From assembly GCA_041690135.1 (NCBI GenBank), contig JAWLHY010000002.1, positions 352,001 to 416,000 of the forward strand: 64,000 bases of DNA. The letters are read 5' to 3'. Both the position numbers and the translations under genes were made by a program. Within the stretch, counting starts at the first letter, position 1, and each line of letters opens with the position of its first letter. This DNA comes from Armatimonadota bacterium. GTDB taxonomy: Bacteria; Armatimonadota; SYMT01. The notes beneath the pieces were generated by a model that was given only the letters and a program-made list of their open reading frames with translations, did not search any database and was not told where the DNA came from. Positions 43,767 through 46,783 of the stretch are shown piece after piece.

Positions 43767-45071
43767 TTACGCTCCTGCCGCGAGGCGTGCGAGGAGTTCG
43801 CCCTGGGGCAGGGTTTCCTGACCGCCCCCCTCCATATCCTTGAGCGAGGCGACCCCCTGGGCCACCTCATCCTCGCCCAGGATCACCACGTAGCGGGCGT
43901 TGACCCGGTTCGCCGCCCGCATCTGCGCCTTCATGCTGCGAGCGCGGTAGTCGGTGTCCGCCGCCACCCCGGCCTGCCGCAGGTCGTTGAGCAGCTTGAG
44001 CCCCGGAAGCCGCGCCGCGTCTCCCAGCGTGACCACGAAGACCGGCCGCCGTGCCTCCACGGGGAATTCCACGCCCAGTGCCTCGCACGCCAGGAGCACC
44101 CGCTCGATCCCGCAGCCGAAGCCGATGCCGGGCGTCGGCTCCCCACCGAGATCCTCCACCAGGCCGTCGTACCGGCCCCCGCCCAGGATCGTCGACTGCG
44201 CGCCGAGGCCGCTGTGCGTGATCTCGAAGCTGGTCTTGACGTAGTAGTCAAGGCCCCGGACCAGCCGCTTGTTGCGCACGTACTCCACACCGAAGGCGGC
44301 CAGCGCCTCCTGCACCGCCGCGAAGTGGCCGGCGCAGCTCTCGCAGAGGTGATCCACGATGTCGGGGACCACCGGCTCCAGCACGGTCCAGTCTTCGAAC
44401 TTGCAGTCCAGGATCCGCAGCGGGTTCGTCTCATAGCGCCGCTGACAGTTGCCGCACATGGAGCCGATCCGCTCCCCAAGGGCCTGCCGCAATGCTTCAC
44501 GGTAGGCCGGCCGGCATGCCGGGCAGCCCACGCTATTCAGTTCCGTCCGCTCGCCGCGGATACCGACCCGGTGCAGGTAGGTCAGACCGAGGGCGATCAC
44601 CTCCGCGTCCAGGGCCGGGTCATCGCTGCCCAGCGCCTCGATACCCGTCTGGTGGTGCTGCCGGAGCCGTCCCTTCTGCGGCCGCTCGTACCGGAAATTC
44701 GGCGCAATGTAGAACAGCTTGGTCATCGGCGCCTCTTTGCCCAGGCTGTGCTGGATGTAGGCGCGCAGTGTCGGCGCGGTTCCTTCCGGCCGGAGCACGA
44801 ACGTCTCCCGCTCCTTCTTCTCTCCGGCGTCGTCCGACTCGCCCGCTTCGGACGGCTTCCCCCCGGAGACGCTGAACATCTCCTTGGAGACGATGTCGGT
44901 GTGCTCTCCCACGGCCCGGACGAACAGGTCCGTCTGCTCGAACGCGGGCGTGCGGATCTCTTCATAGCCGAAGTCCGCACAGGTGCGCCGGAAGGTCCCT
45001 TCCACATAACGCCAACGGGAGACTTCCACCGGCAGGATATCCTGGGTTCCTCTGGGGGCTTTGTATTTCAT
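43767..45071 (-). CDS. hisS: Histidine--tRNA ligase
   Basis: PRGTQD, LRPEGTA, FRYERPQKGR, LVRGLDYY, GGGRYDGL, GFGCGIER. Confidence 0.97.
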   Translation of the reverse strand: MKYKAPRGTQDILPVEVSRWRYVEGTFRRTCADFGYEEIRTPAFEQTDLFVRAVGEHTDIVSKEMFSVSGGKPSEAGESDDAGEKKERETFVLRPEGTAPTLRAYIQHSLGKEAPMTKLFYIAPNFRYERPQKGRLRQHHQTGIEALGSDDPALDAEVIALGLTYLHRVGIRGERTELNSVGCPACRPAYREALRQALGERIGSMCGNCQRRYETNPLRILDCKFEDWTVLEPVVPDIVDHLCESCAGHFAAVQEALAAFGVEYVRNKRLVRGLDYYVKTSFEITHSGLGAQSTILGGGRYDGLVEDLGGEPTPGIGFGCGIERVLLACEALGVEFPVEARRPVFVVTLGDAARLPGLKLLNDLRQAGVAADTDYRARSMKAQMRAANRVNARYVVILGEDEVAQGVASLKDMEGGGQETLPQGELLARLAAGA

Positions 45072-45083
45072 GATCCAGCCTCA

Positions 45084-45152
45084 TCAATTGCAAACTGCAA
45101 ATTGTCAATTTCAAATTTCAAATTTAAAATTTGCAATTCTCAATTTGCAATG
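45084..45152. repeat. AT-rich heptamer array (CAATTTG-like, about 10 units)
   Basis: tcaattg caaactg caaattg tcaattt caaattt caaattt aaaattt gcaattc tcaattt gcaatg in the hisS 5' UTR. Confidence 0.85.
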
Positions 45153-45189
45153 TCTTTTCCCTTGAGCCGGGAAAGGGCGCGGCATCCAC

Positions 45190-45225
45190 AAAAAAGCCGC
45201 GGCGGCCCGGAAGGGCGCCGCGGCT
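45190..45225 (-). terminator. Intrinsic terminator (attenuator) upstream of hisS
   Basis: Minus strand GCCGCGGC-GCCC-UUCC-GGGC-C-GCCGCGGC followed by UUUUUU. Confidence 0.88.
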
Positions 45226-45249
45226 CGAAACGGGGCGACTGCGGAACGA

Positions 45250-45345
45250 TCAGCAGGCGCGCGCGAGCCGCGGCTCACCGTGAAGGTGTCCGTGATGCGC
45301 CCGCCCGGCATCGGCCGACCTGCGTTCCAACGTGCAGTCGTACAT
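45250..45345 (-). CDS. His-rich leader peptide (31 aa)
   Basis: MYDCTLERRSADAGRAHHGHLHGEPRLARAC*; 4 His in 6 codons; ends 25 nt before the terminator; lies upstream of hisS. Confidence 0.8.
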   Translation of the reverse strand: MYDCTLERRSADAGRAHHGHLHGEPRLARAC

Positions 45346-45351
45346 CGCACA

Positions 45352-45381
45352 ACTATAGCACGAGCAGCTTTCCAGGGTCAA
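45352..45381 (-). promoter_or_regulatory. Sigma70 promoter giving a leaderless leader-peptide mRNA
   Basis: TTGACC-N18-TATAGT with extended TGn; 6 nt separate the -10 from ATG 45345. Confidence 0.75.
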
Positions 45382-45700
45382 AGCTTCGCAAACCCCATGA
45401 GAAACCGTTCTCTTATAGGGCTGGGAAGGGCACCCCACTCACGTTGACGGTGGTTTGATGATGCTTTGACGCTGATTTGATCCTTGTAGTCAGGAGAATC
45501 AGTAGGAGATGTTAGAGATTAGGACAAGCGGCCAGGCCGTGTGGAGGCAGACAACACAGAGGATGGCAGTCTCCACCTTCCCCGCGGCACTATGCGCTGC
45601 CCGTCCGGTAGACGCTCTTGAACGAACGATCTGCCAGTGGCGCGTGCGTCCGGAGACAACGATCCGGCGCCAGGCTCATGACAGTCACCAGGAAACGCCG

Positions 45701-46783
45701 ATGCCTCTCATTCTCACAAGACTTCTCAAGGCCTCCAACGCCATTCCCATCGGAGTGGCGTTGGGCCTGGCCTTAGCGGGGGGACCGGTCTGCGCACAGA
45801 CCGTACCTGCATCCTCGGGCGCGGATGGCGCCTTCAATGCTGCCGGCGACGTAATCCTACCCGCCGGCACCTACAACTTCACCACCTTCAACATCGCACC
45901 CGGAGCCACCGTAACCGTGGCGGGAAGCGGCGTGCTCGACATCCGGGTACAGGGCACTGCCGTGATCGAGGGCAGCCTGAGGCTTGACGGCCAGAATGGG
46001 AGTAACGGAGGGGTGAACACGGCTCTTCCGGGTGCGGGAGGGAGTGGTGGCGGTGGAGGCGGGGCGGCCGGCGGAGTGGGCGGCTATTATGCGGGTGTGG
46101 GGCAGAGTGGTTCCGGTCCCGGAGGGGGCGGAAGTGGAGCGAATTCTGCCGACGGTGGAGGCGGTGGAGGGGGTGGGCATGCCGCTCCGGGTGCTAACGG
46201 TGGTAACGGGCTTTACTTCGATACTGGCTTGATCGGCTCCGGGGGAGCCGGAGGGGCAGCCTATGGAGTAACCGCCTTCACCGAGTTGGCCGGAGGGTCC
46301 GGAGGCGGCGGTGGTGGCTACGGCAGCGCGTTCAACGGTTCGGGAGGCGGAGGAGGTGGCGGTGGCGGGGCCGTCCGGATTGCCGCCTCGCAGCTTCAGA
46401 TCGCCGGAGCGATCACTGCCAACGGCGGGAACGGCGGGAACAATGCCGCTGGTACCGACGGCGCCGCCGGCGGGGGCGGCAGCGGGGGCATGGTCTGGCT
46501 ACAGGCGTCTTCGGTCATTCTCTCGGGCGTGGTTCAGGTGAACGGAGGGCTCGGCGGCACGGCTTCCGCGACTTCCCGCGGCACTCCCGGAGCGGGCGGA
46601 AACGGCGCACGGGGTCGAGTCCGGATTGACACGAATGCCCTCACCGGTACGGCTCCAGCGGGAACTTACCTGTCTGAGTATCCCCTGGACGCCTCGGCCG
46701 TGCCGGAACCCGGGGCACTTTTCCTCTTTGCCGGCGCCCTTCTGCCACTTGGGCTCATTGCAAGACGTCGCTCCGGCAGGTAG
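45701..46783 (+). CDS. Glycine-rich PEP-CTERM surface protein
   Basis: Signal peptide, GGGGG-rich repeats, C-terminal VPEPGALFLFAGALLPLGLIARRR. Confidence 0.9.
   Translation: MPLILTRLLKASNAIPIGVALGLALAGGPVCAQTVPASSGADGAFNAAGDVILPAGTYNFTTFNIAPGATVTVAGSGVLDIRVQGTAVIEGSLRLDGQNGSNGGVNTALPGAGGSGGGGGGAAGGVGGYYAGVGQSGSGPGGGGSGANSADGGGGGGGGHAAPGANGGNGLYFDTGLIGSGGAGGAAYGVTAFTELAGGSGGGGGGYGSAFNGSGGGGGGGGGAVRIAASQLQIAGAITANGGNGGNNAAGTDGAAGGGGSGGMVWLQASSVILSGVVQVNGGLGGTASATSRGTPGAGGNGARGRVRIDTNALTGTAPAGTYLSEYPLDASAVPEPGALFLFAGALLPLGLIARRRSGR

Follow-up and report, generated by a model that had tools for sequence, protein, structure and literature searches.

The hisS gene for histidine--tRNA ligase lies on the minus strand of a 64,000-nt stretch of an Armatimonadota genome (hereafter, the window), and is the single match of its kind in that genome. 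A first-pass annotation of the same DNA had placed a promoter, an ATG, a 31-aa frame containing HHGHLH and a U6 terminator in front of the gene, and all of these coordinates were confirmed on the minus strand. The parts of the element were as follows (segments are numbered in the order of transcription):

45376..45381, minus strand: -35 box TTGACC, found in the promoter scan (8 of the 10 homologous leaders have TTGAC at 36-37 nt upstream of the ATG).
45352..45360, minus strand: extended -10 box TG-n-TATAGT (TATAGT at 45357-45352; a -10-like box lies 6-8 nt 5' of the ATG in all 10 leaders).
45250..45345, minus strand: leader peptide frame of 31 aa, predicted to be leaderless (ATG at 45345, TGA at 45252-45250, no Shine-Dalgarno sequence).
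45280..45297, minus strand: four His codons (His17, 18, 20 and 22; HHGHLH), the predicted sensor, from the sequence and from the His enrichment in the 10 leaders.
45271..45292, minus strand: predicted local 1:2 hairpin in the minimum-energy fold (the His-codon stretch 45292-45285 pairs with 45279-45271).
45264..45274, minus strand: segment 2, the antiterminator 5' strand with a palindromic CCGCGG core, 6 nt past the last His codon.
45236..45248, minus strand: segment just past the stop codon, for which pairing with the 5' end of the leader (45340-45334 and 45328-45323) is predicted in ribosome-free RNA.
45217..45227, minus strand: segment 3, the terminator 5' arm and antiterminator 3' strand with a CCGCGG core (sequence, fold and alignment consensus).
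45190..45204, minus strand: segment 4, the terminator 3' arm (CCGCGG core) and U6 tract (sequence, fold and alignment consensus).
43767..45071, minus strand: hisS, histidine--tRNA ligase, 434 aa, the putative regulated gene (TIGR00442, 453 bits; cut-off, 287).

TTGACC (45381-45376) and TATAGT (45357-45352) are separated by a spacer of 18 nt, and the leader ATG at 45345 is located 6 nt past the -10 box; we infer that this start codon lies at or within ~2 nt of the transcription start. The promoter was one of two promoter-like sites detected within 44500-46500, for which shuffled sequences gave an expectation of 0.2, and no other promoter-like site was found on the minus strand of this interval. 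The frame is also open further upstream, to a GTG at 45438 (62 aa), but this start precedes the promoter. The 11-bp antiterminator claimed in the first-pass annotation was also found: GCCGCGGCTCG (45274-45264) is the exact 11-nt complement of CGAGCCGCGGC (45227-45217). Since CCGCGG is self-complementary, the same word serves the antiterminator strand and both arms of the terminator. The terminator hairpin (45226-45194; -28.9 kcal/mol) is accompanied by T6 at 45195-45190, and this U6 terminator is located 118 nt upstream of the hisS ATG (45071). In the minimum-energy fold, the 1:2 hairpin is predicted to hide the beginning of the antiterminator strand.

Two further features were noted in the neighborhood. 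An AT-rich heptamer repeat (TTGCAAA-like; 45085-45155) is located between the terminator and hisS; similar arrays were found at several other intergenic places of the genome (47 overlapping motif matches), and the repeat is absent from the homologous terminator-hisS spacers, which contain other inserts. A divergent Gly-rich protein of 424 aa is encoded on the plus strand (45509-46783); it had no NCBIfam match, and its C-terminus is presumably PEP-CTERM-like.

Homologous leaders before hisS and hisH

The nearest relatives of the HisS protein (68-80% identity) were encoded in the six remaining genomes of the host's family (G001-G006, with G000 being the genome of the window; L-numbers denote loci). 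A leader of the same layout was present before hisS in three of these six genomes, belonging to three other genera (L002, L003, and L004): a -10 box, an ATG, a frame of 25-31 codons, a CCGCGG segment, and a terminator with CCGCGG arms and a U tract. It was also present on a metagenome contig (L101; 76% identity over a 160-aa HisS query). The first-pass annotation had recommended a search for such leaders in related genomes, and had named a lack of conserved His codons as an outcome that would refute it; His codons were retained in the orthologous leaders: 2 in L002, 4 in L003, 5 in L004, and 5 in L101. No hisS leader was seen in G001, G002, or G003 when the upstream DNA was read for the best 30 of 66 HisS matches. 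No leader of this layout passed the filter elsewhere (30 of the 66 hisS matches, 70 genome loci, and, from metagenomes, the 80 top-ranking of 549 loci), a filter that missed L002, which was found by eye, so that leaders with 2 His codons elsewhere could escape it. In four genomes of another family (L017, L018, L019, and L021), a tRNA-like gene followed by a hairpin with a U run was located directly before hisS.

A genome-wide scan of G000 for a -10 box combined with an ATG, a short frame, and a terminator-like hairpin tested 2112 starts. Eighty-three distinct sites passed, only three of which contained at least 4 His codons, and two of these three precede hisS and hisH. The third (C17:113746; 4 His) falls within a long coding frame, is not followed by a his gene, and was rejected. 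The most His-rich site (G000:C5:202505-202645, minus strand; L212:4006-4146) contained 6 His in 17 codons and a CCGCGG terminator; this paralogous leader, starting at G000:C5:202645, precedes hisH-hisA-hisF-hisI (genes named by NCBIfam). Up to 1500 nt upstream of hisH was then read for the best 30 of 58 matches and for the contig with the G004 hisH start, and leaders were found in five of the six family genomes with a hisH match: G000 (6 His), G002 (4), G003 (5), G004 (5), and G005 (7). The hisH leader was not seen in G001, and G006 had no hisH match at 1e-30. At least one copy of the leader was present in six of the seven family genomes, and both copies were present in three. Outside the family, hisH often directly follows hisB. 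The short form of hisG (G000:C1:1505871, minus strand) is located apart from hisHAFI, directly behind an aminotransferase-like gene and without a leader of its own.

A covariance model built from the 10 leaders recovered the 9 genomic training copies. No further His leader before a his gene was found among the 16 weaker matches inspected (seven family genomes and a 121-genome sample of the phylum, with 150 or 26 candidates scored per genome). When a 24-nt leader pattern with 2 mismatches was searched in the seven family genomes, control matches equalled the real ones, and only the 3 exact matches corresponded to leaders.

The 10 leaders shared a marked and frame-specific abundance of histidine: 47 of 251 codons in frame versus 2 and 4 in the other frames. 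His was enriched 6.9-fold over a background of 2.7%, every other residue was at or below 1.25-fold, and the peptides otherwise diverge. The binomial P for 47 of 251 (~3e-25) is a naive value, since kin are not independent; for the leader of the window alone (4 His in 30 codons), P was ~0.009 at the same background. Both His codons were in use (CAC, 30; CAT, 17). In all 10 leaders, the ATG is located 6-8 nt past a -10-like box, with no Shine-Dalgarno-like word, and this spacing and the missing Shine-Dalgarno sequence fit leaderless translation from a putative start site. Of 232 strong promoter sites in G000, 4 were followed by an ATG at a gap of 6-8; leaderless starts show no general enrichment behind such promoters in this genome, and the fixed ATG spacing therefore characterizes this family of leaders. 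In 9 of the 10 leaders, the first CCGCG core is located 6-12 nt past the last His codon. Each of the ten leaders appears to be a compact switch of about 140-170 nt.

Predicted pairing of the leader RNA and modelled ribosome positions

The terminator was recovered as the consensus structure of the 10-leader alignment. Antiterminator pairs were kept in 75% of the cells of this alignment versus 32-54% for slid controls. The antiterminator covariation score was reached by 228 of 500 shuffles in these 10 sequences with an invariant core; it does not rise above shuffles because the core is both invariant and palindromic. The 1:2 hairpin was paired in 74% of cells of the 10 leaders, and its covariation score was reached by 30 of 500 shuffles. 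The pairings of the leader 5' end with the region just after the stop codon, which had been suggested from the sequence of the window, did occur within the minimum-energy fold, but the fold of the whole leader was unexceptional (z, -1.49; 13 of 200 shuffles were as good). Long ribosome-free hairpins form in the homologous leaders too, with differing sequences.

The effect of ribosome position was examined with a masking model, in which every base was blocked as far as 6, 8, or 10 nt beyond the A-site codon and the RNA was cut before the 3' core of the terminator. In the leader of the window, the modelled antiterminator probability was 1.0 with the ribosome at His17, 18, and 20, 0.1 or lower from Pro25, and 0.0 at the stop codon. 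The values at His22 depended on the footprint (1.0, 0.6, and 0.2, respectively), and this codon may be too near the antiterminator to count. The hisH leader of G002, which is without the CCGCGG segment, was excluded from the model. In 8 of the 9 remaining leaders, the antiterminator was lost within about three codons of the last His, and its probability at the stop codon was also 0.0 in 8 of the 9, with 0.5-0.8 for the hisH leader of G000. In L004/L034, the modelled antiterminator was high only around His15-His17.

The first-pass annotation had argued that a ribosome stalled at the His codons leaves the antiterminator free, and that one at the stop codon masks it. This geometry was reproduced by the masking model (1.0 at His17, 18, and 20, and 0.0 at the stop), but not by full-length folding at equilibrium, at which the terminator wins: with the ribosome on the His codons of the window leader, the terminator probability was 0.83-0.95 at His17-20 and 1.00 at His22. 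Since the terminator of the window dominates at equilibrium, read-through must be kinetic, i.e., determined by the order of folding. In the four other hisS leaders, the terminator partly or largely yields under the same full-length conditions. The nascent antiterminator of ribosome-free RNA reached 0.87-0.99 in 4 of the 9 leaders, including that of the window, and 0.30 or lower in the other 5; the value for the window (0.94) was 0.12 under another truncation and pair set. The putative 1:2 protector was present in full-length folds of the untranslated leader.

Probable histidine attenuation and rival readings

From its conserved parts, the element is very probably a ribosome-read transcription attenuator of the hisL type that senses charged tRNA-His, with a leader predicted to be leaderless. 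The hisL-type mechanism before hisS, as originally proposed, is backed by conservation in relatives, by the specificity of the His frame, and by the folding model; from these parts, we infer the start site, translation, stalling, and read-through as follows. Transcription would start at or beside the A of the ATG, on which a ribosome would load without a Shine-Dalgarno sequence. When His-tRNA is scarce, the ribosome would wait at His17, 18, or 20, covering segment 1 and leaving segment 2 free; the emerging segment 3 would be captured by segment 2 before segment 4 is made, so that the terminator would come too late and the polymerase would read into hisS. When His-tRNA is plentiful, the ribosome would pass over segment 2 to the stop codon, the 3:4 hairpin would fold, and transcription would end at U6. 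The related leader of hisHAFI would place that cluster under this signal as well, and the two loci would make up a small histidine regulon.

The same RNA might sense a general slowdown of translation, or arrest by the nascent peptide at the G-x-P-R stretch, with the His codons being secondary. The CCGCGG core does encode P-R in frame in 8 of the 10 leaders, mostly with Gly before it, and in the model, stalling at nearly every codon ahead of the core leads to antitermination in most leaders. However, His is the sole enriched residue, and the targets are His genes. Furthermore, the bases coding for P-R and Gly take part in the 1:2 and 2:3 pairings, and a ribosome at P-R would, in the model, mask the antiterminator strand and favor termination. 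The hisH leader of G000 keeps a similar RNA, although its frame stops before the core, which lies in another frame; the recurring Gly and Pro-Arg are for this reason best read as a by-product of the RNA pairings. We consider a slowdown or arrest sensor to be very unlikely. A switch operated by uncharged tRNA or by a protein (e.g., HisS itself or an antiterminator that binds His), in which the short frame is not the sensor, is still less likely. It would suit the stronger conservation of the RNA segments than of the peptide and the occurrence of T-box-like elements in the phylum (matches in 30 of the 41 genomes of the sample). Nevertheless, no Rfam family was found in the window at the gathering score, and neither His_leader (RF00514) nor T-box (RF00230) was among the 28 weak matches, all unrelated, obtained up to E 10 for 45000-45500; moreover, the in-frame His, the use of both synonymous codons, and the fixed position of the ATG are explained only by translation.

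The least likely of the alternatives is that the hairpin is a constitutive premature terminator, or the end of a small terminated RNA, with hisS being transcribed from another promoter and the His frame being incidental. The terminator is indeed strong and dominant at equilibrium, three family genomes are without such a leader before hisS, and the distance from the terminator to hisS ranges between about 60 and 420 nt across homologues. Against these points stand the same anatomy before two His-related loci in several genera, with 47 His among 251 codons, and the single minus-strand promoter-like site within 44500-46500. No rival accounts for the enrichment of in-frame His at both of these loci, and a hisL-type attenuator remains the preferred reading.

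Other candidate attenuators were found in the same genome. Two T-box-like matches (88-89 bits, below the cut-off of 93 bits) were located at G000:C13:135397-135757 (plus strand) and G000:C22:48092-48338 (minus strand), the first upstream of ilvB and the second upstream of a small gene with valS behind it; we take the small gene to carry a HIT-like motif. A predicted leaderless, Ile-rich frame of 17 codons with a terminator precedes ilvA (threonine ammonia-lyase; G000:C2:1234595, plus strand; L213), a gene without a close match in the six other family genomes. Upstream of trpE (G000:C13, about 85040-85210, plus strand; L285), a frame with three consecutive Trp codons is accompanied by GC-rich hairpins and a U run; its start is located about 16-19 nt past a -10-like box, and this is likely a trpL-type attenuator with a short 5' UTR. 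Upstream of ileS, leuS, trpS, cysS, lysS, asnS, pheS, aspS, gltX, and tyrS of G000, the regions listed showed no leaderless leader rich in one amino acid (tyrS was named by NCBIfam; the others are presumed from their motifs). Predicted leader peptides and T-box-like elements thus coexist in one genome.

We also lean slightly towards a wider reading, in which the leaders would represent an independently evolved, family-specific design of Armatimonadota: one self-complementary hexamer would act as the antiterminator strand and both terminator arms, ribosomes would load at the first transcribed base, and the copies on the sole hisS and on hisHAFI would form a histidine "ribulon" set by the order of co-transcriptional folding, alongside the T-boxes of ilvB and valS.

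Comparison with known systems

The leader peptide of hisL contains a single run of seven His codons behind a Shine-Dalgarno-led start, whereas the leaders described here contain 2-7 interspersed His codons and are predicted to be leaderless, and one of their targets is a synthetase gene; the window gave no RF00514 match, either at the gathering score or among the weak matches of 45000-45500. Attenuation of an aminoacyl-tRNA synthetase operon by a leader peptide is also known from pheM/pheST of E. coli, which resembles the present case in its type of target gene and differs in sensing Phe, in its Shine-Dalgarno-led start, and in its host (Proteobacteria). The likeness to hisL of the E. coli/Salmonella his operon (RF00514) includes the His-codon leader peptide, the competition between an antiterminator and an intrinsic terminator, and the response to charged tRNA-His, as outlined in the accessible part of PMC9413887.

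The closest parallels in the accessible text of earlier reports come from Firmicutes. In Bacillus, hisS* and hisZ were predicted to be preceded by His leader peptides (Naville and Gautheret 2010, PMC2965389), and Ashniev et al. described His attenuators in 17 Firmicutes genomes that did not match RF00514, with his-operon attenuators in the B. cereus group, Eubacteriales, and Erysipelotrichales (PMC9413887). As in the family studied here, the Bacillus His leader is common to a synthetase gene and a His biosynthesis locus, and replaces a T-box (PMC2965389, PMC9413887). On the other hand, the Bacillus leader precedes a paralogue of hisS, and a T-box is retained by the main hisS gene (PMC2965389, in its accessible part); in the present genome, the target is the sole hisS match, and the phylum is different. 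The Bacillus leaders, which we liken by description, are not described as leaderless in the accessible parts of these two papers (PMC2965389, PMC9413887).

Leaderless leader peptides are known from Deinococcus deserti, in which 14 at mapped transcription starts were predicted to be attenuators (de Groot et al. 2014, PMC4007540, Table S9, as far as accessible). Eight of them are located on synthetase genes (Tyr, Thr, Trp, Met, Asp, Leu, Cys, and Phe), and biosynthesis genes are also among the targets; in the accessible part of that report, there is no His leader among the 14, and hisS itself starts 2-3 nt from the transcription start (PMC4007540). In mycobacteria, leaderless polycysteine short ORFs at several loci (the "ribulon") were experimentally shown to act through ribosome stalling (Canestrari et al., 10.1101/834739); according to the accessible text, this system senses cysteine and sequesters a downstream ribosome-binding site, whereas the present element contains an intrinsic terminator 118 nt before the gene.

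The suggestion in the first-pass annotation that such an attenuator is probably undescribed in this lineage holds in part: its ingredients are published (the His leaders of Bacillus and the leaderless leaders of Deinococcus), but no report of an attenuator or leader peptide was found for Armatimonadota (Armatimonadetes) in the literature covered, which mostly excluded subscription papers. The contrast originally drawn with the T-boxes of Firmicutes does not apply as stated; the host is likely a member of Armatimonadota, and its HisS matches give no indication of Firmicutes.

The present results would extend leader-peptide attenuation to Armatimonadota, a phylum for which we found no attenuator report, and would place a synthetase gene and biosynthesis genes under one leader family, while T-boxes and leader peptides appear to divide amino acids within one genome. 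The ten natural variants pin down how far the antiterminator lies from the last His codon, and the combination of a putative leaderless start with attenuation makes it possible to test cleanly how quickly ribosomes load on an AUG at the 5' end of a transcript that is still being made. No new principle is revealed: judging from sequence and folding model, these leaders probably work like hisL while standing outside both RF00514 and the T-box family, a classical mechanism in another lineage.
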